Source: Minisyncoccota bacterium
Lineage (GTDB): Bacteria > Patescibacteriota > Minisyncoccia > Phycocordibacterales > UBA6065
Reading direction: 5' to 3'
Length of the DNA stretch: 64,000 nucleotides
Assembly (NCBI GenBank): GCA_036400935.1
Contig: DASWWW010000001.1
Location: 46,096 to 110,095 of the forward strand
Shown: positions 6,853-51,571 of the stretch, in pieces
How positions within the stretch are numbered: the first letter of the stretch is position 1
How the letters are laid out: each line of letters begins with the position of its first letter
Notes under the pieces: generated by a model
Databases searched by the model: none
Told to the model about the DNA's origin: nothing
The model's input: only the letters and a program-made list of their open reading frames with translations
Position numbers and translations under genes: made by a program

Positions 6853-6972
6853 GTTTTTTGCTACTATCGCTTAGCACTAGTAGGGAACAGGCGGCACATA
6901 TGCGGGCGTGGTTTAATGGTAGAACGATTGCCTTCCAAGCAGTACGTCCGGGTTCGATTCCCGGCGCCCGCA
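6853..6972 (+). repeat. copy 1 of a ~120 bp direct repeat (promoter-region sequence plus tRNA-Gly TCC)
   Basis: gttttttgctactatcgcttagcactagtagggaacaggcggcacatatgcgggcg...cccgcac is identical to 11064-11183. Confidence 0.9.
6902..6972 (+). tRNA. tRNA-Gly (anticodon TCC), copy 1, no CCA encoded
   Basis: Acceptor GCGGGCG/CGCCCGC, anticodon arm ATTGC-CTTCCAA-GCAGT, T loop TTCGATT. Confidence 0.8.
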
Positions 6973-7081
6973 CAAACTCAAAAACTCCTATTTTATATGG
7001 CTTTCCAGAGCCGAGGAATTTTTGGTTAGAACCTCATAATAAAAAGAAGTTCCTTGTGAGAAACTTCTTATTGAATGGAGT

Positions 7082-7297
7082 CTAGTCATCCATAAACGGC
7101 CAAATATAATTATTGTTTCCTGCTGCGCCGCCAACCGCCCTTTCCGAGCGTCTGTGGGCTTCAGCACACGGCAGACCGGTTTCATCCATGATTCGTGCCG
7201 TTTCTTCTTGTCTTCTGGTTTCATAAGCCGACATCTGATGTTTGATTAGTTCATCATGACGATCAGCTAAACTTTTTAGTTTTTTCTTTTTTGACAT
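7082..7297 (-). CDS. hypothetical small basic protein (71 aa)
   Basis: ORF only; lies in a locally AT-rich segment immediately 3' of tRNA-Gly copy 1. Confidence 0.3.
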   Translation of the reverse strand: MSKKKKLKSLADRHDELIKHQMSAYETRRQEETARIMDETGLPCAEAHRRSERAVGGAAGNNNYIWPFMDD

Positions 7298-7436
7298 TGT
7301 TAACCTTTCCTAAAGTAATCTACAAAACCTTTTCTTGAACTTTAAGTAAAAAAAGTGAAATTCAAAATAGTGGCTAATACAATAGTTATTTTGTAAAAAA
7401 GTTGACAAAAATATTGTCATAAACAATATTGATAGT

Positions 7437-8225
7437 ATGAAATTACAAAAAGCAGAATTATCTTTTTTAAATCTTTCGAGCTTAGAGGCAAAAATACTGC
7501 AGACTATGTCTCCTGATGTTTCATTTACCGTAAGTGAGCTGTCGAGAGAAATTAAATTTCCAAGGACTTCCGTAGGTTTCACTTTAAATAGGTTAAAGTA
7601 TCGTGGCTTTGTAAAAAAAATTGGGGTTAAGAAACATACGGAATGGCGAGTCATTGCGATTGATTCCTTAGCCTCGAGGCTCCAATCTATTTCTCACCGG
7701 TTAAGTATCGATGAAGATAACAATAGAAGAAACAATTTATTTGTAAAAATCGGCTACGGTCAAGAGGGTTTCAAGAGGGCATATGAAAAGATGCTTCAAA
7801 TCCAATGTGACCGAGTTTACTTTATACAAGGCAATAAAGCGGCAGAAGCTGGTCTAAAAAAGATCAATTTTAGCTACTATGCTGATTTTCATAAAAAATT
7901 ACGGAAAAAAGACATCGTAATGGAGGCAATAGCAGGAGAAAGTATCTTGAAACGTCTAGAAAATCTGAGTAAAGAAGAGATAAGGGCACACAAAGATCGC
8001 CTAATCATTACTTACTTAATACCCGATCAATATATAGATTTCGATGTAGATATAATCATGTTAAATAAGCATCTGATTATTGTAGATCCCGTGAATGAAA
8101 TCTCACTTACAATAAATGAAGCTTCCATTTCGAAAGCTTTCCAGATAATATTTATTGGCCTTGCATCATTGGGAAGAAAATTCGATTTAAATGCTTTTAT
8201 AAGAGGTTCCAATTTCATTCACTAA
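7437..8225 (+). CDS. TrmB-like winged-helix transcriptional regulator (AT-rich, atypical codon usage)
   Basis: N-terminal HTH (LSSLEAKILQTMSPDVSFTVSELSREIKFPRTSVGFTLNRLKYRGFV); the C-terminal domain resembles that of the 18975..19736 protein (AISKAFQIIF vs IADSMRTWFQIIW). Confidence 0.5.
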   Translation: MKLQKAELSFLNLSSLEAKILQTMSPDVSFTVSELSREIKFPRTSVGFTLNRLKYRGFVKKIGVKKHTEWRVIAIDSLASRLQSISHRLSIDEDNNRRNNLFVKIGYGQEGFKRAYEKMLQIQCDRVYFIQGNKAAEAGLKKINFSYYADFHKKLRKKDIVMEAIAGESILKRLENLSKEEIRAHKDRLIITYLIPDQYIDFDVDIIMLNKHLIIVDPVNEISLTINEASISKAFQIIFIGLASLGRKFDLNAFIRGSNFIH

Positions 8226-8242
8226 TCTGCACCAACAAATGA

Positions 8243-8266
8243 AAAATCCCCGGAAGGGGATTTTTC
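8243..8266. terminator. hairpin aaaaatccccggaaggggattttt (also present at 11193-11218)
   Basis: Perfect GC-rich stem flanked by A/T runs; bidirectional terminator shape. Confidence 0.5.
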
Positions 8267-8275
8267 GTTGCGATC

Positions 8276-9058
8276 TTATTTTTTATTGCCACCAATCGTG
8301 CCCCATAGATTCTTGAAAAGCTCGCGCATGTTCTCGGCATAGACAGCGTCATGTATCTCAACCAAATAGTAGGGGTGCTGCTTTGTCATCATGAATACAA
8401 CGTATTCTCCTAGGGCCCATGTTGTTGCGGTGAATTTAAAATCCTCCTTCCAGAATTTGATTTGGCGGCGTTCCAGGTTTCTCGCTTGCATGTTTCGTTC
8501 GACGCTCGAATCATTTGAGATTATCTTTACGTCGAACTGCTGAGGGGCTCTTTTCCAATACCACTCGATCCACTCGAGATGCTCCTTCTTTTCAACCATC
8601 GTATGGTCTTGGAATCCCCACCACGTGAGATCTTTTGTTGCAGCCATGCTCGATTCCCAGATCGGCGTCTGGCTATAAAGAAAATCAGTCATGTTGTGCT
8701 CCTCGATGAATCGCATCTTGGGTACCGAATAGGATTTCGATTTAGGCACGCTCTCAAGCTTCGTCACGAGCTCTTGGGCTATTTTCCTTTTTTCCGAAAG
8801 CGCTCTTTCCTCGACTTGGAGCGCTTTCTCAAGATGCTCGAGGGGTAGGGCGACAAAATAGCCGTTTGGGCCATGTATGTCTTCAGCCATAACGCCCCTT
8901 TTGATGAGCTCTTTGCCGACGGAATACACGGTAGGTCTCTTGATATTGGTCAGGGAGGCGATTGCGGCGGGCGCTATTTTGCCATTTTCTAGTACGGTCA
9001 GATATACCTGAATCTCCTTATCGGTAAAGCCAAGTTTTTTGAGTAATTCATCGATCAT
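8276..9058 (-). CDS. TrmB family transcriptional regulator
   Basis: N-terminal TrmB HTH (FTDKEIQVYLTVLENGKIAPAAIASLTNIKRPTVYSVGKELIKRGV); C-terminal domain paralogous to the 13961..14758 protein (WWGFQDH conserved). Confidence 0.65.
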   Translation of the reverse strand: MIDELLKKLGFTDKEIQVYLTVLENGKIAPAAIASLTNIKRPTVYSVGKELIKRGVMAEDIHGPNGYFVALPLEHLEKALQVEERALSEKRKIAQELVTKLESVPKSKSYSVPKMRFIEEHNMTDFLYSQTPIWESSMAATKDLTWWGFQDHTMVEKKEHLEWIEWYWKRAPQQFDVKIISNDSSVERNMQARNLERRQIKFWKEDFKFTATTWALGEYVVFMMTKQHPYYLVEIHDAVYAENMRELFKNLWGTIGGNKK

Positions 9059-9337
9059 GGCTCTAGTATAACCAATCTCTAATTGTTGTCAATGTTAAAT
9101 CAACAGATAAATACCTTTATCTTATATAGATTATATCGATTTATCTAAATAAATCGTTGATTTTAAATTGACAATTAATAAAAACTGTGCAATACTTATA
9201 TAAGAAAGTAAAGTTCATTACATTGCGTTGGTTATGGAAACGGGCCCTATCTAGATATCGGCCCGACTCCGTAACCAATGCGACTGATAAGCTCCCTTCT
9301 TGGGATGACACGGTTGCTGAGGTGAGGAACATACGCC

Positions 9338-10090
9338 ATGAGTACCACTGATACAAGTGCTGGTGCGAAAAACGACGGACGGTTCGCTCACACGCTCGGG
9401 GAGGAGTACGAGTTGCTACTGAAATCGATGCCTCATTATAGCGAGGTTCAGTGGAGGATCGGCCAGATCATTGGGAAAAGGTTTGAGGGCAAACCCGTTT
9501 CTAAGGTCAAGGTCCTTGAAATCGGCTGCGGTACCGGTATCACTACGCGGGCGATTCTCGGGTGCGATGTGAGGACGGAGATCTGGGCTGTCGACAACGA
9601 GAAGGTGATGCTCGAGCAGGCAAGGGCCATGGTAAAGGGTCTGCGCGCCCAAAGCCGTGTTCATTTCGAGCAGCACGACATCTTGGTCTTCCTCGGGACG
9701 GTTCCGGATAGCTACTTCGATGTCGTCGCTTCTGCCTGGGTGCTCCATAACTTCGAGAATGGTTTACGTGAGGAAATCATGAAAGAAATCTATCGGGTGC
9801 TCAAGCCGGGAGGGCTTTTCGTGAACGGCGACAAGTATGCCCACGACGATCTCGCCGAGCGGGCATCGAGGCTCGCTGAGCAGATCCGACGCTTTGACGT
9901 CTACGATGGCATGGGCCGCTCGGACTACAAGGCGGAGTGGATCGCTCACTACGTGCAGGACGAGCGTCCGGAAGTGATCTGGATCGAAGGTGAGGCGAAG
10001 AAGCAGATGCACCGGCTCGGCTTCGAGATGGTTGGTCCGATTTATCGCTGCCTCATGGAGGCCGTGATGGTCGGGACCAAGCCGGTCTGA
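9338..10090 (+). CDS. class I SAM-dependent methyltransferase
   Basis: Motif I VLEIGCGTGITT; post-I acidic residue; VLKPGGLFVNGD motif. Confidence 0.7.
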   Translation: MSTTDTSAGAKNDGRFAHTLGEEYELLLKSMPHYSEVQWRIGQIIGKRFEGKPVSKVKVLEIGCGTGITTRAILGCDVRTEIWAVDNEKVMLEQARAMVKGLRAQSRVHFEQHDILVFLGTVPDSYFDVVASAWVLHNFENGLREEIMKEIYRVLKPGGLFVNGDKYAHDDLAERASRLAEQIRRFDVYDGMGRSDYKAEWIAHYVQDERPEVIWIEGEAKKQMHRLGFEMVGPIYRCLMEAVMVGTKPV

Positions 10091-10225
10091 GCTTATCAGG
10101 AGAGTTGGAAGACTCATTAAAACTTTCAGCCTGCATCTCGATCGATGCAGGTTCCTACGAGGCTTACGACGCAAGTGCGTCGCGGGTCTCCAGGAATAGG
10201 ACATTGAAATATTTCAGCTTTCTCT

Positions 10226-10975
10226 ATGAAAACGACACTGCTGCTAGTTGCTATCGCATCAGTCGCGCTCCTTTCGAGCGGGACTTCCGCTTCGGAGTCA
10301 AAAGGACCGAGCGTTACCGTAGGGACTTTGATTACTAACAAGTATCTGGCCTCGGGGACAGGCTCGACGCTGAGTCGGGATCCAGCGCTCCAGTCGGATC
10401 TATTCGTTATGTTTCCAAATGGCTTCTACGTAGATCTCTGGAATTCCAGAAGCCTTCGCGGCTCATGGGATGACGGAAGCCTTGGCAACGAGGTGGACTA
10501 CAGCGTTGGCTGGAAGGGCGCGGTTGCTGAGGGCGCAAGTCTGAACGTTGCCACGTCCTACTTCGACGAGCCGAGGGCTTTCGATCTTGGTAAAGGCGAC
10601 ATTCTCTATACACGCGCGTTTCTGACCAAGGGCTTCAAGCTCTTGCCTGTCACGATCGGGTATGAGAACTATGTCGCTATGCCTAGCTCGGGTTTCCGCG
10701 GCGGGAGCCTGGTTAGCCTGGGCTCGGGCAAGTCTTGGTCTGGGATCGAGAGCAAGATCTCGGCGCGCGTCTCGGCTGCTGCGGTGTATGACTTCGGCAC
10801 GCTAGGCACTTCGAGCGGAGTGATATTTCGAGGCGGCGCAGGCATTGACTGGAAAGCCTCGAAGCGTCTGACCGTCAATCTGATTGGAGCGAATTGGTTT
10901 GTTCCGGTAACTCCTCGGGATAAGCGATCATCAGACGTCGCTTTCTCTACTGGCGTTACGTGGAGTGTGAAATAG
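10226..10975 (+). CDS. secreted beta-rich protein of unknown function (signal peptide), paralog of 14891..15628
   Basis: MKTTLLLVAIASVALLSSGTSASE signal peptide; Gly/Ser/Tyr/Trp-rich alternating pattern; same length class and position in module as the 14891 gene. Confidence 0.5.
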   Translation: MKTTLLLVAIASVALLSSGTSASESKGPSVTVGTLITNKYLASGTGSTLSRDPALQSDLFVMFPNGFYVDLWNSRSLRGSWDDGSLGNEVDYSVGWKGAVAEGASLNVATSYFDEPRAFDLGKGDILYTRAFLTKGFKLLPVTIGYENYVAMPSSGFRGGSLVSLGSGKSWSGIESKISARVSAAAVYDFGTLGTSSGVIFRGGAGIDWKASKRLTVNLIGANWFVPVTPRDKRSSDVAFSTGVTWSVK

Positions 10976-11042
10976 TCGCTTTGTCAGATTCAAGCCCGCA
11001 TCATGAAAATGATGTGGGTTTTTATTTTGCTATGTGACAAAT

Positions 11043-11070
11043 AAAAAACCGCCCAGTGAGCGGTTTTTTT
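11043..11070. terminator. hairpin aaaaaaccgcccagtgagcggttttttt (near-identical copy at 11721-11751)
   Basis: Perfect stem with symmetric A/T runs; bidirectional. Confidence 0.5.
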
Positions 11071-11183
11071 GCTACTATCGCTTAGCACTAGTAGGGAACA
11101 GGCGGCACATATGCGGGCGTGGTTTAATGGTAGAACGATTGCCTTCCAAGCAGTACGTCCGGGTTCGATTCCCGGCGCCCGCA
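11064..11183 (+). repeat. copy 2 of the ~120 bp tRNA-Gly-containing direct repeat
   Basis: Identical to 6853-6972. Confidence 0.9.
11113..11183 (+). tRNA. tRNA-Gly (anticodon TCC), copy 2, followed by encoded CCA (11184-11186)
   Basis: Sequence identical to copy 1; 3' context gcaCCAacaa differs from copy 1 (gcacaaactc). Confidence 0.8.
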
Positions 11184-11192
11184 CCAACAAAT

Positions 11193-13960: not shown

Positions 13961-14758
13961 CTATGCGATTTTGCTCCCGGCCGAGGATTCGGTGAGCGAC
14001 CACAGCTTCTTGAAGACCTCACGCATGTTGTGGGCGAGCGTCACGTCGTGAATCTCTACCAGGTAGAAAGGGTGCTGCCTGGTTACTGCCATGACAAGAT
14101 AGTCGCCCGCGACCCACACGCTCGATGTGAAATTCATGCCGGGGAGGAAGCGTATGTCGCGCTTTTCTCGCGAAAGCGTGCGCTTCATCTTGTTCTCGAT
14201 GGGCGATATGTTGCTCAGCAGGTGGGCCTTTACTCGGGGGTCCTGATACTGCTTCTGATTCCATACCCACCTGATCCATTCCTCGTAATTCTCGACGAGG
14301 CTGTGATCCTGAAAGCCCCACCAGGTGAAGTCGATTGAGGATATGGCGTCTTGCCACTTGTGAAAATTTTCATAGAGGAAATTCTTGAGGCCGCTTTCCT
14401 CCACGAATCTGATTTTCGGCACGGGATACTCCTTTTCTGCCGTGACGACGCTGAGCTCGTCTATGAGCTTCTTTATAAGCGACTCCTTTTCCTCGAGCTC
14501 GCGGCGCGGCTTCTCGATTATCTGCTTGAGGCTTTCGAGGGGCAGGGGGCTTAGGTACAAGGTCTTTCCGCCCAAGTCTTCGGCAATGATCCCTTTGGTA
14601 AGCAGGCTGCGCGCGATATTGTAGACGGTTGGCCTGCTGATGCCGCAGATTTTGGATAGGGAGGTGGGGGTCATGCGCCCCTTCTTTATAAGGGCGAGAT
14701 AGACTTTTATTTCTTTAGCGTTGAGGCCGATATCGGCGAGTTTCTCATTTAGTGACAT
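13961..14758 (-). CDS. TrmB family transcriptional regulator, paralog of 8276..9058
   Basis: Start moved to MSLNEKLADIGL (14758) by analogy with the paralog; HTH LSKICGISRPTVYNIARSLLTKGI; shared C-terminal motif FTWWGFQDHSLVENYEEWIRWVW. Confidence 0.6.
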   Translation of the reverse strand: MSLNEKLADIGLNAKEIKVYLALIKKGRMTPTSLSKICGISRPTVYNIARSLLTKGIIAEDLGGKTLYLSPLPLESLKQIIEKPRRELEEKESLIKKLIDELSVVTAEKEYPVPKIRFVEESGLKNFLYENFHKWQDAISSIDFTWWGFQDHSLVENYEEWIRWVWNQKQYQDPRVKAHLLSNISPIENKMKRTLSREKRDIRFLPGMNFTSSVWVAGDYLVMAVTRQHPFYLVEIHDVTLAHNMREVFKKLWSLTESSAGSKIA

Positions 14759-14890
14759 AAATGCAGGATATTCTGTTGTCAGAGTTTTGTCAACAAAAGT
14801 CATACAAAAATTGACAATAATGGGGATATCGCTAGGGTTAATAGTTGAAACGTTCGTTCGGCAACCTTGAAAATTCAATATGGGCTTACT

Positions 14891-15628
14891 ATGAAATACC
14901 TGGTGCTTATCCTTAGTCTCACGCTCTGCGTATCCCGGCTGCAGGCCGCAGATTCCAAAATGTCCTGGTCGCTTACGACCAGCGTACTGTCTCAATATAT
15001 CGGGGAGGGCGGTAGCGTCTTTTCCGAAGATCCCGAGCTCATCACGGATCTAATCGCCTTTAAGGGCGACTGGTATGCGGGCTTGTGGGTAGCCACGGGC
15101 CTTAAGGGCGGTTCATATACCAAATCCTACGCCAATGATTACGATCCGTATGTCGGCTGGGCGCGCGCTTTCGGCCCGGTTAAGTACGAAATTACGGCGA
15201 TTTATTTCGCAATCAGCGATCTGCGGCTTATCCGCGACGATATCTGGGTCTTGGATCAGAAAGTCAGCTTTTCGAAATGTCCTGTCGTCCAGCCGTATAT
15301 AAAGGTGCGTTCCGCCTTTGAGATAGGCTCGAAAAGTTTCGAACGCGGGATGTTCGTCTGGGCGGGAATCGGCAAGTCCATCGCCTTGGGCGAATCAAAG
15401 CTGAGTCTCGACCTATCAACCGCGTATTCGGATGGGGCCTACGGAAAAGACTCGGGATGGATATTCGGCCGGGCATATGCCGGTCTGACTATGCCGCTGT
15501 CCAAGAATCTCTCCGTCATGCCCTCGTTCATGTATCAGGTCCCGGCTTCGGGCCAAAAGGGAAACCCTCGCGGGTTTACGAATGGCAATGAAGTCGTCGC
15601 CGGCATATCGATCACTCGCAAGTTCTGA
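14891..15628 (+). CDS. secreted beta-rich protein of unknown function, paralog of 10226..10975
   Basis: Signal peptide MKYLVLILSLTLCVSRLQAADS; similar Gly/Tyr/Trp-rich composition and length. Confidence 0.5.
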   Translation: MKYLVLILSLTLCVSRLQAADSKMSWSLTTSVLSQYIGEGGSVFSEDPELITDLIAFKGDWYAGLWVATGLKGGSYTKSYANDYDPYVGWARAFGPVKYEITAIYFAISDLRLIRDDIWVLDQKVSFSKCPVVQPYIKVRSAFEIGSKSFERGMFVWAGIGKSIALGESKLSLDLSTAYSDGAYGKDSGWIFGRAYAGLTMPLSKNLSVMPSFMYQVPASGQKGNPRGFTNGNEVVAGISITRKF

Positions 15629-18974: not shown

Positions 18975-19736
18975 CTATTGTTTTGGGCCGGACTTGTTTT
19001 CTTCCGGAGTTGCTTTCCAAATTATCTGGAACCAGGTACGCATGCTGTCGGCTATTGCCTTGTTGGCAATGACTGTATAGGTTGCCTTCTCGTCTATCTC
19101 GCCTGGCCGAATACTCGAGAATATGATGATGCGATCCTCTAGTATCTCGATGGCGGAATTCGTTGAAAGGTCGGGGCCAAAGAACTTGTTTGACGACATG
19201 CTCAGAACTGACGGTATGGCATGCCGTGCTTCGTGGTCAAAAATGGCGAAAAAGCGGATTTTCTTTCGTTTGGCCTCGCGCTCGAACTGCTCATAAAAGG
19301 ATGAGATGCGCTTGTCTCCCCAGGCGCCCTTCGCGCCCAGCGTATATATGTCGCCGCCGACGCGCAGAAGCTCTCTCATGTAGTTTTTCCAGCCTTCTAT
19401 GCCGCGATAGACATATATTGAGTCGTCACGTCGGGCTCCCTGGTAAAGGGATTCCAAGGAAGGAATTATCTTTTCGAGCTTAGACTCTTTTTCTTTTACT
19501 ATCTCCATGAGCTTTCGGGGATCAACGGCTTGGTAGCGATTTTCGGCGCCTTGAAGTATTTCAAATGCCACGCCCTTCTCTACGAGGCGATTTACTGAAT
19601 CGTACACATTGCGTCGGTTGATTCCGGCACGCACTGCAATTTTGCTTACCGGAAGCTCCCCATCAATAAGAAGAGTTTCATATATTTTAGCCTCGTTTTT
19701 CGAAAAATTAAGCTCTGTAAGGGTTTCTACAATCAT
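18975..19736 (-). CDS. TrmB-like winged-helix transcriptional regulator
   Basis: HTH FSKNEAKIYETLLIDGELPVSKIAVRAGINRRNVYDSVNRLVEKGV. Confidence 0.55.
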   Translation of the reverse strand: MIVETLTELNFSKNEAKIYETLLIDGELPVSKIAVRAGINRRNVYDSVNRLVEKGVAFEILQGAENRYQAVDPRKLMEIVKEKESKLEKIIPSLESLYQGARRDDSIYVYRGIEGWKNYMRELLRVGGDIYTLGAKGAWGDKRISSFYEQFEREAKRKKIRFFAIFDHEARHAIPSVLSMSSNKFFGPDLSTNSAIEILEDRIIIFSSIRPGEIDEKATYTVIANKAIADSMRTWFQIIWKATPEENKSGPKQ

Positions 19737-48669: not shown

Positions 48670-48724
48670 GACGAAATGATATCAGGTTGGAATACAAAAA
48701 GCTCCCACGAGGGAGCTTTTTGCG

Positions 48725-48810
48725 AATGGGTCGAGAACTCGCGGCGATTAGAACTTTGGTCATCGAATTCCTGGCATAAAAAAGCTCGTCGCGGTGAAGC
48801 GACGGGCTCG
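48725..48810 (-). repeat. cassette array T-arm copy 0 (core aatgggt, then cgagaactc...gattagaactttggtcatc...ctggcataaaaaag plus terminator hairpin)
   Basis: Aligned by eye with 49405-49512 and 50119-50216. Confidence 0.7.
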
Positions 48811-48814
48811 ACTG

Positions 48815-49264
48815 TTATTCGGACAGGTCCTTTGGACTGTAGCCCTTCCTCCTCAGGGCGACGTAGATCGGCAGATAGAAGGCGACGAACTCCTTGTCCC
48901 ACGCTTCGCCTTCAAGTGAGGTCAACGACAGGTACTTGGCCCCCATCTTTTCGGGCGTGAAGCCGAGGCTTCCAATCGTCTCGTCGAGCTGTGTGTAGAA
49001 TTGGCGATTCGTCTGGCTCAGCCTGAGAGGGCTCTCTCTCCAATCTAGTGGATCCTCGTCAGAAACCTCTGAGATCGGGACATTGTCCCATAACCCCTGT
49101 GTCTCGACGAGCTTCCTGTAGTACCCGCGACCGCCCACGTCGGCGGTCTGAGGGAAATGCAGGTGGAGATTGCCAATGAGCGCGACGAGCGTCCGTTTGG
49201 GATCGGTCGGCCGATAGCCGCCTTCTGGCAGTGCGGTCAGTTCGGGAATTTCATCCATGTTCAA
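48815..49264 (-). CDS. cassette gene A: hypothetical acidic 149-aa protein
   Basis: Paralog of gene B (MN(M)DEIPELTALP.G.YR.TD...S.LRLSQTNR.F...LPIYVALRRKGYS..DL). Confidence 0.5.
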   Translation of the reverse strand: MNMDEIPELTALPEGGYRPTDPKRTLVALIGNLHLHFPQTADVGGRGYYRKLVETQGLWDNVPISEVSDEDPLDWRESPLRLSQTNRQFYTQLDETIGSLGFTPEKMGAKYLSLTSLEGEAWDKEFVAFYLPIYVALRRKGYSPKDLSE

Positions 49265-49345
49265 TACAGAGTCAATTGTTTCAGTTGCAGGTTTAAAGAG
49301 CGTTGCACTTATATTGCAACTAATTTATTTATTGTCAAATACATA
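49265..49345 (-). promoter_or_regulatory. cassette promoter A: TTGACA-N17-TATAAG with flanking TTGCAA/TGCAAC palindromes (minus sense)
   Basis: Minus-sense gtatgtaTTTGACAataaataaattagttgcaaTATAAGtgcaac. Confidence 0.55.
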
Positions 49346-49361
49346 CTAGTTCCAATTCCCC

Positions 49362-49512
49362 TTAGGGGTCTGATTCTGAACGGCCTTGTTGAGCCGAAAA
49401 ACTAAATGGGTCGAACTCTTATCAATTAGAACTTTAATCGTCGAGTCTTGCGAATAAAAAAGCCCGAGACACGCTGCCGTGTCTCGGGCTTGTGGGTAAC
49501 TTGGCCACAGGG
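49362..49512 (-). repeat. cassette array C-arm 1 plus T-arm 1 (junction core aatgggt at 49405-49411) including terminator hairpin
   Basis: ttaggggtctgattctgaacggccttgttgagccgaaaaactaaatgggt | cgaactcttatcaattagaactttaatcgtc... Confidence 0.7.
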
Positions 49513-49962
49513 CTAAATCGCCAAATCCCTGCGGCTGTAACCTTTCTTCCTCAGGACAATGTATATGGGAAGAAATTTTTTCTCGTATTCTTCTGCCCAC
49601 GCCTTCCCAGTCAGCCGCCCTAAAGCGAGGTTCGCCTCTTTGATTGATTCGAGGGCTATTCCAGCCTCGCAGACGGCCCGATCAATCGCGGCAAAGAATT
49701 CACGATTGGTCTGACTTAGTCTTAATTGACTGTACTCCCATCCGGGGCGGCTTCCATCTTTGGCCCATTTCTCTGAAATTCTCTCGTCCCAGATACCAAG
49801 TTCATCGACGTTATAGCGACTACGCCCTAAGTCTGGAGCAACGTCGACGCTTCCGGGAAAGCGCAAGCAGAGATTGTTGAGAACACCAACGACACCTCGA
49901 TGATCGTCAGTGGCTCGATATGTGCCGTCAGGCAAAGCGGTTAGTTCAGGAATATCGTTCAC
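49513..49962 (-). CDS. cassette gene B: hypothetical 149-aa protein, paralog of A
   Basis: About 35% identity to A over full length, with conserved N- and C-terminal motifs. Confidence 0.5.
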   Translation of the reverse strand: MNDIPELTALPDGTYRATDDHRGVVGVLNNLCLRFPGSVDVAPDLGRSRYNVDELGIWDERISEKWAKDGSRPGWEYSQLRLSQTNREFFAAIDRAVCEAGIALESIKEANLALGRLTGKAWAEEYEKKFLPIYIVLRKKGYSRRDLAI

Positions 49963-50060
49963 AACGAAAATCGGGTTGATTGTTTGTTTGGGTCAGGTTC
50001 AAAGAACGTGCAATTACTATATTGCAATCAAAAACTGAACTGTCAAATGCAAAGGTGCAC
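49963..50060 (-). promoter_or_regulatory. cassette promoter B: TTGACA-N17-TATAGT with TTGCAA...TTGCAC palindromes
   Basis: Minus-sense cctttgcaTTTGACAgttcagtttttgattgcaaTATAGTaattgcac. Confidence 0.55.
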
Positions 50061-50075
50061 CAGTTCTAACTCCCG

Positions 50076-50216
50076 TTAGGGGTCTGATCCTGAATGGCTT
50101 TATTGAGCCAAGAAATAAATGGGTCGAGAACTCTTATCGATTAGAACTTTGGTCATCAAATTTCTGGCATAAAAAAGCCCTCCGCAATGGTGCAGAGGGC
50201 TCGAGGCGTCGGCGTA
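50076..50216 (-). repeat. cassette array C-arm 2 plus T-arm 2 (core at 50119-50125) including terminator hairpin
   Basis: ttaggggtctgatcctgaatggctttattgagccaagaaataaatgggt | cgagaactcttatcgattagaactttggtcatcaaatttctggcataaaaaagc... Confidence 0.7.
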
Positions 50217-50858
50217 TCACCGAAAATACACCAGTGAGGGGTGCTGGTCCGACAGCTTGTCGTTTCGGAGGTTCAGCATTATAACCTGTCCGTTCTTCGA
50301 CAGAGTTGGCAAGCGGGGCTGACCTTCGGGATCTCTGACGACGGCACCCCCGAAGACCAGAGAATCTATACGTGGATCGGCGAAGAATCTGTCCACGAGA
50401 AGGCGATTCCTCGACAACGTCACGAATACCGACCAGTCGGGCCGCACAAAGCCCGTTCCGTCCCATGTGCTTGCGACCCTTTCTTTGCAGGTCTCTGACG
50501 AGCTACTGCCGAATCGAACGAAAAGCCTGTTCGCTTCGAGAATCTCGATATTCAGAGATTTTGGATCTTGGAGGTCTTTCCCTTTAAGGCCGCTTCCTTC
50601 AATAGGCCCTTTCCATATCGTCCAGTCGCCATGGAAAAAACGTTTGGTGTCCGTAGTTCCGCGGTCGATGTTAATGAACGGGGGCGGGGACATCTTCGCT
50701 CCGTTTTCCAGGAACCTGCTGAACTCTTTTCCCGCATCCGCAGGATTTTGAAACACCCGCTCCGCGGTGCTATTCGTAACTCGGTCCAGACAGACGTTGG
50801 TTACCAGAGTGCCGAGCATTCTTGCGGCCCTCGTGGAGTCTATGATTGGCTGACTCAT
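50217..50858 (-). CDS. cassette gene C: hypothetical 213-aa protein (unrelated to A/B)
   Basis: ORF with no recognisable domain; same promoter/terminator context as A and B. Confidence 0.45.
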   Translation of the reverse strand: MSQPIIDSTRAARMLGTLVTNVCLDRVTNSTAERVFQNPADAGKEFSRFLENGAKMSPPPFINIDRGTTDTKRFFHGDWTIWKGPIEGSGLKGKDLQDPKSLNIEILEANRLFVRFGSSSSETCKERVASTWDGTGFVRPDWSVFVTLSRNRLLVDRFFADPRIDSLVFGGAVVRDPEGQPRLPTLSKNGQVIMLNLRNDKLSDQHPSLVYFR

Positions 50859-50989
50859 AAGAGCTGACCTTTCTTTGTTGATGGACGCTGACCAAGGGGC
50901 TCTGACGAGGCCCTCGGCTGACGTTCTGGGCGTTTTGCCTCAGAACACAAGGGTCTTAGACCCCTCTGTTCTGAGGCAAACTAAGTGGA

Positions 50990-51060
50990 CAATATCAAAG
51001 AGCTTGCAATGCATATATTGCAATTAAAAATTAAATTGTCAAACGTAAAGACGCACCCGC
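50990..51060 (-). promoter_or_regulatory. cassette promoter C: TTGACA-N17-TATATG with TTGCAA-N8-TTGCAA palindromic hexamers
   Basis: Minus-sense gtctttacgTTTGACAatttaatttttaattgcaaTATATGcattgcaagc. Confidence 0.55.
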
Positions 51061-51070
51061 TCTAAGTATC

Positions 51071-51120
51071 GTTAGGGGTCTGATCTTGAATGGCTTTATT
51101 GAGCCGAGAAACTAAATGGG
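51071..51120 (-). repeat. cassette array C-arm 3, abutting the tRNA-His 3' end through the same aatgggt core
   Basis: ttaggggtctgatcttgaatggctttattgagccgagaaactaaatgggt followed directly by the tRNA. Confidence 0.7.
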
Positions 51121-51190
51121 TGCCTAGAGGGAATCGAACCCTCGACAGCGGGACCACAATCCGCTGTTTTACCACTAAACTATAGGCACC
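51118..51190 (-). tRNA. tRNA-His (anticodon GTG) with encoded G-1 and CCA; acceptor position 1-72 is a G-A mismatch as read
   Basis: GGTGCCTA TA GTTT AGTGGTA AAAC A GCGGA TTGTGGT CCCGC TGTC GAGGG TTCGATT CCCTC TAGGCAA C CCA. Confidence 0.7.
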
Positions 51191-51251
51191 ATCGTCGTCT
51201 GTTTTCTTAAGAGAAATGGCGGGCGGCGAAGCCGCCCGCCATTTCTCCATG

Positions 51252-51333
51252 TGCGCGGAAGAGGACTTGAACCTCCATGCCTTACGGCGCTACCACCTCA
51301 AGGTAGTGTGTCTGCCAATTCCACCATCCGCGC
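51252..51333 (-). tRNA. tRNA-Leu (anticodon GAG), long variable arm
   Basis: Acceptor GCGCGGA/TCCGCGC, anticodon arm CTACC-TTGAGGT-GGTAG, variable arm CGCCGTAAGGCATGG, T loop TTCAAGT. Confidence 0.8.
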
Positions 51334-51501
51334 ATTGGCCAAGAATAAGCTTTCTTTTTCTTGTTCGCACATCATACATAAAGTTGGCCGTATTTTCAAC
51401 TTTTTCGGTCAGACAAAGCAAAACCGCTCCTTGCGGAACGGTTTTGATCCTCAGCCTTACCATGTGCCTATGATAGGCGATCAGGGAATCCTTTTCAAGT
51501 A

Positions 51502-51571
51502 TGGACATGACGGGGATCGAACCCGCGTTCCTCAGATGGTAAGGCTGAGGACCTAGGCCACTAGCATGCCC
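51502..51571 (-). pseudogene. tRNA-like element: canonical acceptor stem and T arm but an aberrant D arm and a 9-nt anticodon loop (CCTTACCAT); possible pseudo-tRNA or att remnant
   Basis: GGGCATG...GCGGG TTCGATC CCCGT CATGTCC A; a 16-nt segment (cctcagccttaccatg) is repeated in inverted orientation at 51448-51463. Confidence 0.35.

Follow-up and report, generated by a model that had tools for sequence, protein, structure and literature searches.

An uncultured bacterium of the Candidatus Paceibacterota (candidate phyla radiation, CPR), represented by a metagenome-assembled genome (MAG), carries three small minus-strand gene units that are arranged head-to-tail at the 3' end of its tRNA-His gene. 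The units, each 0.7-1.0 kb long, lie within the 64-kb stretch of DNA that was analyzed here (the window), and the array that they form is real and non-random. It probably represents a miniature cassette chromosome, in which three recombinase-less integrative units accreted serially by site-specific recombination at the 3' end of tRNA-His, with a large serine recombinase (LSR) acting in trans. The evidence comprises the repeat architecture of the array, the exact boundaries of homology between its units, the association of an LSR clade with tRNA-His in related lineages, and an arm motif common to the units and to LSR-bearing elements. Because unit boundaries and tRNA end coincide in three lineages, whose arms fall into two unrelated sets, and because the LSR clade occupies the same position and shares the arm motif, accretion at tRNA-His is the best explanation. 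Accretion as such is already known from staphylococcal cassette chromosomes (SCC), ssrA islands, and tycheposons; judged from its sequence, the array is best read as distinctive in the very small size and uniformity of its apparently self-expressing, single-gene units.

A three-unit array at the 3' end of tRNA-His

The array and its immediate surroundings comprise the following features, listed in the direction of transcription:

51251-51333 (-): tRNA-Leu, upstream of tRNA-His
51118-51189 (-): tRNA-His (GTG), called by ARAGORN and with 64 bits by the Rfam tRNA model; 3' end ..GGCACCC
51115-51121 (-): core J0 (ACCCATT in gene sense) at the junction of tRNA-His and C-arm 3, by direct reading of the sequence; overlaps the 3' end of tRNA-His
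51047-51114 (-): C-arm 3 (repeat family D1), with the conserved 34-nt block TTAGGGGTCTGAT..TTGAGCC
51000-51043 (-): promoter-like box of cassette 3, TTTGACA-N13-TTGCAATAT and a second TTGCAA (palindrome)
50859-50999 (-): structured 5' leader of g3 with two hairpins; the hairpin with 23-nt arms at 50934-50980 is inverted repeat I1
50217-50858 (-): g3, 213 aa, cargo of cassette 3
50175-50202 (-): terminator of cassette 3 (terminator scan)
50125-50174 (-): T-arm 3 (repeat families D3 and D4), contains AGTTCTAA-N16-ACCC
50118-50124 (-): core J1
50051-50117 (-): C-arm 2 (repeat family and pattern match)
50005-50047 (-): promoter-like box and palindrome of cassette 2
49513-49962 (-): g2, 149 aa, recorded as VGE35_00530
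49460-49491 (-): terminator of cassette 2 (terminator scan; inverted repeat I4)
49412-49459 (-): T-arm 2, with a spacer of 14 nt rather than 16 (2-nt deletion)
49405-49411 (-): core J2
49337-49404 (-): C-arm 1 (repeat family and pattern match)
49300-49339 (-): promoter-like box and palindrome of cassette 1
48815-49264 (-): g1, 149 aa from a TTG start, 147 aa from the ATG at 49258, which is likely the true start
48787-48804 (-): terminator of cassette 1 (terminator scan)
48732-48786 (-): T-arm 1, outermost
48725-48731 (-): core J3, distal end of the array, where similarity to the other junctions ends
48696-48724 (-): hairpin with T-run directly past the distal core (from the sequence); analogous hairpins follow the distal core in two related lineages (L003 and L032)

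Alignment of the four inter-unit regions, combined with a repeat finder, yielded a frame common to all units. In gene sense, ACCCATT is followed by a C-arm of ~68 nt, the box TTTGACA-N13-TTGCAATAT with a second TTGCAA-like hexamer, and a TCTTTGA box; after the gene come a GC-rich hairpin with a T-run and a T-arm that ends in AGTTCTAA-N16-ACCCATT. The three units, arms, terminators, and core that had been described in a first-pass annotation of the window were all recovered in place.

The repeat finder detected three copies each of the C-arm family (72-77% identity), the T-arm family (70-82% identity), and the promoter box, and a 34-nt block of the C-arm is 91-100% conserved among the three units. 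Within the 64 kb, the array is the only place matched by degenerate patterns of the promoter box, the C-arm, the T-arm, and the T-arm/core combination, where shuffled sequences predict 0.00-0.01 matches; for the C-arm pattern, three matches stand against an expectation of zero. The first-pass annotation had considered that the arms might be ordinary repetitive extragenic palindromic (REP)-like repeats, but within the 64 kb they are confined to this locus, which also distinguishes them from bacterial interspersed mosaic elements (BIMEs) and miniature inverted-repeat transposable elements (MITEs). Searches of viral, phage, and plasmid collections gave no match to the arms, and a search of arms and leaders against Rfam (E-value mode) returned only tRNAs and chance matches.

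The core AATGGGT occurs in four copies, and the boundaries of homology fall exactly at this core. Homology between the units starts immediately after the 3' end of tRNA-His and ends at ACCCATT, beyond which lie a terminator hairpin and unrelated DNA with a MauE-like gene. This hairpin is presumably the native terminator of the tRNA operon and would represent the chromosomal B' flank, and the 3' end of tRNA-His (..GGCACCC) would constitute the chromosomal half of the attachment site. The junctions of g1 and g2 are 65.5% identical overall and 70-82% identical in the arms, as compared to a nucleotide identity of 55% between the coding regions of the two genes. The tandem units are located at the 3' end of a conserved gene and are bounded by direct repeats of that end, and the exact homology boundaries support the proposal of the first-pass annotation that the geometry of the array reflects site-specific insertion at this position.

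A candidate interpretation of the C-arm as a coding remnant of the C-terminus of a recombinase was rejected. It was based on a plus-strand frame that reads RGLILNGFIEPRN followed by a stop codon, in which five of eight differences are synonymous. All eight differences are transitions, their split among codon positions (4/3/1) is not significant, the upstream codons are unconserved, and tblastn with the LSR gave no match in this region.

Large serine recombinases and cassettes at tRNA-His in related lineages

The most informative relative is represented by a contig (JACCDR011709926.1; L003) that shows the same synteny as the window, with rplS followed by tRNA-Arg, -Val, -Leu, and -His. Here, tRNA-His is directly followed by a gene on the opposite strand that encodes a 501-aa LSR with Resolvase, Recombinase, and Zn-ribbon domains and has its stop codon inside the tRNA gene. 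The LSR gene is followed by a gene for a superinfection-immunity-like protein, by small open reading frames (ORFs), and by genes for a DUF4365 protein of 960 aa and for a membrane protein; a second, small serine recombinase (an equivalent of DsiA) is absent from the vicinity of the LSR. The first junction beyond this element, AGTTCTAA-N16-ACCCA-tcg-TTTGACA..TTGCAATAT, leads into a homolog of g3 (70% amino acid identity). The second consists of a terminator and AGTTCTGA-N16-ACCCA-aca-TTTGACA..TTGCAATAT and leads into an unrelated gene of 231 aa, and the third consists of a terminator and AGTTCTAA-N16-ACCCA, followed by a hairpin. The T-arm motif of these cassettes, AGTTCTRA-N16-ACCCA, is the same as in the window.

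At the tRNA-proximal junction of L003, an inverted motif (TTAGAACT) is located 12 nt past the core, which gives the reconstructed site AGTTCTAA-N16-ACCCA-N12-TTAGAACT the inverted-repeat layout of a serine-integrase attP. The position of the LSR element between the tRNA and the older cassette implies that new insertions are tRNA-proximal even when a cassette promoter instead of the native flank serves as the far half-site, and insertion next to the tRNA irrespective of the far half-site explains how a stack can grow. At the very end of the same contig (11695-11714), ~150 nt past the distal core, a 20-nt stretch repeats the 3' end of tRNA-His (cgattccctctaggcaccca), which points either to another element whose tRNA repeat is longer or to a branch point in the assembly.

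The closest homologs of this LSR (40-46% identity) are P0006 (L031-33), P0009 (L034), P0012 (L036), and P0015 (L041). Each of their genes is convergent with a tRNA-His gene and overlaps its 3' end by 12-65 nt, so that, with L003 included, such an overlap is present in all five homologs examined. The far end of a 4.8-kb LSR element in L032 reads AAGTTCTAAT-N15-ACCCCA (full string, AAGTTCTAATagctgtccgaatgcgACCCCA) and is followed by a hairpin. The arm motif AGTTCTRA-N16-ACCC(C)A is common to the T-arms of the window and the LSR-distal ends in L003 and L032, i.e., the cassettes share an attachment-site arm with recombinase-bearing elements. The first-pass annotation had suggested looking for a serine or tyrosine recombinase that co-occurs with the arms; the LSR clade at tRNA-His, with the arm motif at the outer ends of its elements in the relatives, is a strong candidate for this recombinase.

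The T-loop of the tRNA (GGTTCGAT) matches AGTTCTAA in five of eight positions and is located 11 nt from ACCCA, as opposed to 16 nt in the T-arm. The zinc-ribbon motif, as reportedly described by Rutherford et al. in 2013, lies ~5 bp nearer the center in attB than in attP; the spacing of the T-loop is consistent with this offset, although in a suggestive way only.

Among the 17 loci retrieved in a metagenome scan, only L015, L016, and L022 are related to the array, and L022 is the L003 contig. L015 (Ga0172380_10025209) represents a third lineage with tRNA-Leu/His synteny and a two-unit array at tRNA-His. Its first unit begins with tRNA-His..CCCCA and continues with a left arm of 60 nt, TTTGACA..TTGCAATAT, a 97-aa gene, terminators, and a right arm; the second unit repeats CCCCA, the same left arm, the promoter, a 244-aa gene, a terminator, and the same right arm before the array ends with CCCA and the flank. 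The arms of L015 are unrelated in sequence to those of the window; the order of the parts is identical. A decayed version of the frame is found in L016 (470-1280), with no tRNA in view. It comprises AGTTCCCA..ACCA, the promoter box, a 161-aa gene, a terminator, and AGTTCTAC.., followed by a plain promoter, a Cys-rich gene of 97 aa, and host genes (photolyase and copper ATPase). The arms of L016 are degenerate, with ACCA as the core, and both core and palindrome are missing from the next unit.

The cassettes at tRNA-His therefore differ between related lineages (g3, g2, and g1 in the window; the LSR element, the g3 homolog, and the 231-aa gene in L003; the 97-aa and 244-aa genes in L015), which speaks against the strict synteny that the first-pass annotation had named as incompatible with its interpretation. 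A promoter-box scan of contigs from species-representative genomes yielded chance matches only, and the lineage is evidently not among the representatives. Scans of viral contigs for the promoter box, the C-arm, the T-arm, and the LSR yielded nothing relevant, and BLAST searches of phages and plasmids found nothing.

Origin of the array and its relation to known systems

If the array arose by accretion, each unit would consist of a C-arm as its left end, the promoter-like box with its palindrome, one gene with its terminator, and, as its right end, the T-arm (AGTTCTAA-N16) with the terminal ACCCA(TT), which would regenerate the last bases of tRNA-His after insertion. The conservation of ACCCA is explained by the need of any insertion to leave tRNA-His with its discriminator base and the first part of its CCA end re-created. 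The recombinase would most likely be a tRNA-His-specific LSR of the clade present in related Paceibacterota, supplied in trans by a full-size element that is located elsewhere in the genome or has since been lost. Such an LSR presumably moved these particular units, and the units may still be able to move. An LSR-served stack of tiny, self-expressing units at a single tRNA would be a compact way to acquire and keep accessory genes, and the tRNA-His-specific LSR clade would have predictable attachment sites; LSRs of this kind are useful for genome engineering.

Several points weigh against this scenario. The LSR gene, which is located next to attL in L003, L031, L034, L036, and L041, is absent from the entire window according to tblastn, and none of the LSR homologs listed bears the locus tag of this MAG. 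The shared core is merely 5-7 bp long, and the ~49 nt between the core and an inverted TTAGAACT-like motif in the C-arm do not fit the compact attP of ~50 bp of an LSR. The coding sequence of g3 and its counterpart in L003 have a nucleotide identity of 72%, which is close to that of rplS (71%); the shared cassette is therefore old, and its divergence fits vertical inheritance better than recent transfer. The only other samples of the organism (L001 and L002) are 100% identical over 8 kb, which means that there is no evidence of recent mobility, and no copy-number variation is seen. Moreover, canonical LSRs recombine attP with attB only, and the building of an array requires a relaxed choice of partners. 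In agreement with the first-pass annotation, no recombinase is adjacent to the array, neither by tblastn nor within ~10 kb on either side in L001.

Part of the same evidence feeds the strongest rival explanation, namely, that the units are fixed remnants that were never mobile singly but represent attR-proximal stumps of full LSR elements, left behind after deletion of the recombinase and core genes. It would account for the lack of a recombinase beside the array, the identity of independent samples, the divergence of g3 to about the same extent as the genome, and the degenerate arms in L016, and comparable remnants are present in tycheposon islands (10.1101/2020.12.28.424599) and ssrA islands (PMC3146451). 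Nevertheless, this explanation is unlikely. All three units have a common left end that can be aligned from the C-arm through the promoter box; since independent deletions would not yield identical endpoints, the reduced unit itself must have propagated or exchanged its cargo. Also the better conservation of the arms relative to the paralogous coding sequences, which argues for continuing constraint, and the occurrence of the same uniform small-unit design with unrelated arms in L015 are at odds with fixed remnants.

Mobilization of the units by a tyrosine recombinase, with the 7-bp core as the overlap region, is distinctly less probable than that. An identical core of 7 bp fits the typical overlap length of tyrosine recombinases, the asymmetric 3' ends of tRNAs are a known target class of tyrosine integrases, and arms of ~50-70 nt on each side resemble arm-type sites more than the compact site of an LSR. 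The enzyme could be an unseen integrase or the Xer of the host, as on integrative mobile elements exploiting Xer (IMEX) and pdif modules; a Xer-type tyrosine recombinase of 349 aa (814-1863, +), 47 kb from the array, is indeed the only recombinase in the window. It exceeds the NCBIfam cut-off only for an archaeal-type XerA/integron-integrase-like model, its integron-integrase scores are far below the cut-offs, and neither Pfam scans of the remaining long ORFs nor the gene table of L001 revealed any other recombinase. However, the core is not flanked by inverted arms of the dif type (AGTTCTCG and AGTTTCTCG are repeated in direct orientation), the ends of LSR elements carry the same T-arm motif, and none of the relatives examined has a tyrosine integrase beside tRNA-His. 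Least probable of all is a local tandem duplication of an expression module (terminator, spacer, and promoter) with subsequent gene replacement and divergence, in which the match of ACCCATT to the tRNA would be coincidental and the repeats regulatory spacers only: although g1 and g2 are adjacent paralogs, unequal crossing-over between the arms is plausible, and the common promoter box, palindrome, and TCTTTGA box look regulatory, evidence against a duplication comes from g3, which is unrelated to its neighbors, from homology limits that coincide precisely with the tRNA 3' end and the core, from the presence of the arm motif at LSR element ends in two further lineages, from the recurrence of the design with other sequences in L015, and from the LSR clade, which targets precisely this position.

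For an array accreted by an LSR at tRNA-His, the best reading of these comparisons is that it would work like SCC composite islands and the ssrA islands of Dehalococcoides. Tandem arrays that were built by LSRs and contain recombinase-less units are documented for the ssrA islands (PMC3146451). As in the relatives with an LSR at tRNA-His, the gene of the LSR (DsiB) is on the reverse strand and directly adjoins attL, where a tRNA-like gene has its 3' end. Features in common with the array are several tandem islands bounded by direct repeats of the 3' end of the target, a conserved motif just upstream of each repeat, and the lack of an integration module in many islands, which have been proposed to be cis-mobilizable (PMC3146451). 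By contrast, the target of the ssrA islands is tmRNA with a repeat of 20 bp instead of tRNA-His with a core of 5-7 bp, and the islands comprise several kb with rdhA operons instead of single genes of 0.7-1 kb in a uniform promoter/terminator frame. Similarly, the 3' end of a conserved gene is the target at which the large serine recombinases of SCC (CcrAB or CcrC) insert cassettes, and tandem composites include units without ccr genes (PsiSCC; bioRxiv 10.1101/336396). However, SCC units have a size of 3-60 kb, are directed to rlmH (orfX), and do not share a promoter module. The best matches of the L003 LSR among curated families are CcrB and CcrC, but its scores are far below the cut-offs (115 bits vs. 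900 for CcrB), and it is not a Ccr ortholog.

Tycheposons of Prochlorococcus (bioRxiv 10.1101/2020.12.28.424599) resemble the array in that older elements are displaced outward as new ones integrate at the same tRNA gene, partial copies of the tRNA lie between the elements, degenerate remnants occur, the hosts have streamlined genomes, and LSRs are used by a minority of the elements. Unlike the array, they mostly employ tyrosine recombinases and carry replication modules and multi-gene cargo, and uniform single-gene promoter/terminator cassettes have not been described for them; the units in the window contain neither integrase nor replication genes, and their tRNA repeat comprises only 5-7 bp. 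Phage morons also consist of a promoter-gene-terminator module, but the units are not inside a prophage: their neighbors are tRNA and housekeeping genes, and the cargo has no PHROG matches. Cis-mobilizable elements (CIMEs) share att-like flanks and the lack of a recombinase; they are, however, defined by mobilization via accretion with an integrative and conjugative element (ICE), and no conjugation or ICE genes were seen in the window.

The resemblance to an integron that the first-pass annotation had noted turned out to be an analogy. Integron arrays also consist of ordered, mostly single-gene units, each bounded by a recombination site, beside a fixed insertion point. In the present case, however, this point is the 3' end of a tRNA, and the units have their own (predicted) promoter-like TTGACA box and terminator and appear to be self-expressing, whereas integron cassettes are mostly promoterless and depend on a platform promoter. 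No IntI-type recombinase accompanies the array, either in the window or within ~10 kb on each side in L001. A folded site of the attC type was rejected: single-stranded DNA folds of both strands at two junctions yielded short local stems only (z-scores, -2.3 to +0.7) and no arm-to-arm hairpin. The array is not an integron, and the resemblance is functional only.

Little is understood of how members of the CPR (Patescibacteria), whose genomes are very small, gain genes. We put forward, as a tentative possibility, that Paceibacterota have an integron-like, LSR-run platform for gene capture, in which the 3' end of tRNA-His would serve as a fixed insertion point and single-gene cassettes of <1 kb, equipped with a co-regulated promoter/operator and a terminator of their own and with a half-site that restores the tRNA end, would be stockpiled, exchanged, and possibly reshuffled. 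Such a platform would provide a route to accessory genes for bacteria with tiny genomes and few other mobile elements.

Regulatory signals, cargo, and other features of the window

The promoter boxes of the window cassettes recur in L003, L015, and L016. Each of the three cassettes has a perfect -35 box (TTGACA), as expected for the near-consensus promoters of the first-pass annotation, but the proposed spacing of 17 nt is off by 2 nt: the TATAxx hexamer is located 19 nt downstream, and the hexamer at 17 nt is AATATA. This spacing explains why a consensus promoter scanner did not call any of the three boxes; the terminators of all three cassettes were called. Judged by their motifs, the promoter-like boxes presumably fire, and the TTGCAA palindrome may be an operator for a common repressor. 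The presence of the same promoter, palindrome, and TCTTTGA box in front of unrelated genes suggests that the whole stack is co-regulated. The latter box (TCTTTGA or TCTTTAA), ~11-13 nt past TTGCAATAT, is common to cassettes with unrelated cargo (cassettes 1-3 of the window, L003, L004, L015, and L016) and may represent a conserved 5' end of the transcripts. The window, which stems from a small genome, encodes four winged-helix regulators of the TrmB family (7437-8225, 8276-9058, 13961-14995, and 18975-19736), which are candidate binders of the TTGCAA palindromes.

The leader of g3 is more similar between the window and L003 (87.8% nucleotide identity) than the coding sequence (71.9%) and is recognizable even in front of a homolog with an amino acid identity of merely 37%. 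In the three homologs (window, 50859-50999, minus strand; L003, 9818-9965; L004, 1258-1416), it forms two hairpins, with compensatory changes in 7 of 44 predicted pairs, and the TCTTTG at its 5' end can pair with a CAAAGA just upstream of the Shine-Dalgarno sequence. It has no match in Rfam. The leader of the g3 family is thus a conserved structured RNA and a candidate for a new cis-regulatory leader.

The products of g1 and g2 are paralogs (44% amino acid identity, E 2e-40) and are unrelated to that of g3. They belong to an unnamed family of ~150-aa proteins with 163 cluster representatives (E<=1e-3) and the motifs LNNFxxxFP, SxxxLxQTxRxF, and PxYxxLRxKGYSxxDL. The statement of the first-pass annotation that the cargo has no detectable family thus does not apply to g1 and g2 but holds for g3, which has only three homologous clusters, with P0003 (70% identity) and P0004 (37%) as homologs, and no known family. 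The AlphaFold (AF2) model of g2 is confident, with a predicted local distance difference test (pLDDT) score of 92.9, and mostly helical; the model of g3 (pLDDT 41) is unusable. The g1/g2 family has no Pfam match, its model has no significant neighbor among solved or viral structures, and a sequence profile search of the PDB was empty. An exact-sequence look-up of g2 returned no record, and Pfam, PADLOC, PHROGs, and NCBIfam yielded nothing for g1, g2, and g3 or for the cargo of L003, L015, and L016, so that no match to families of defense, phage, or toxin proteins was obtained.

Other members of the g1/g2 family (P0131, P0132, and P0126) are solitary genes located beside housekeeping genes, a type III restriction-modification system with DUF3800, or a HicA toxin gene; none of these loci is at tRNA-His, and none has the arm motifs. 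The gene of P0132 (L038 and L039) is located at the edge of a variable segment, which in one contig comprises the type III restriction-modification system and DUF3800 and in the other a sigma factor, with a tRNA-Asn ~900 nt upstream. This location suggests that the g1/g2 family tends to occupy accessory regions. If the accretion of units at tRNA-His is correct, both the ~150-aa family with its LNNF...KGYSxxDL signature and the g3 family with its structured leader RNA would be mobile cargo worth testing for a role in defense or host interaction.

Two further loci in the window involve tRNAs. A tRNA-like element between rplS and tRNA-Leu (51499-51571, minus strand), which was not called by ARAGORN, folds into a cloverleaf in which the acceptor stem is GGGCAUG/CAUGUCC, the T-arm is normal, and the anticodon stem has 7 bp and a 9-nt loop. 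It scores 22.8 bits (E 2e-6) with the Rfam tmRNA model and may represent an unusual tRNA, a pseudogene, or the remnant of a tRNA-like element. A segment of 4.1 kb (6902-11186) is flanked on both sides by a copy of tRNA-Gly(TCC) (6902-6973 and 11113-11186); it includes a low-GC stretch (0.36), two TrmB-like regulators, a methyltransferase, and an uncharacterized 249-aa protein and may represent a second tRNA-flanked island.

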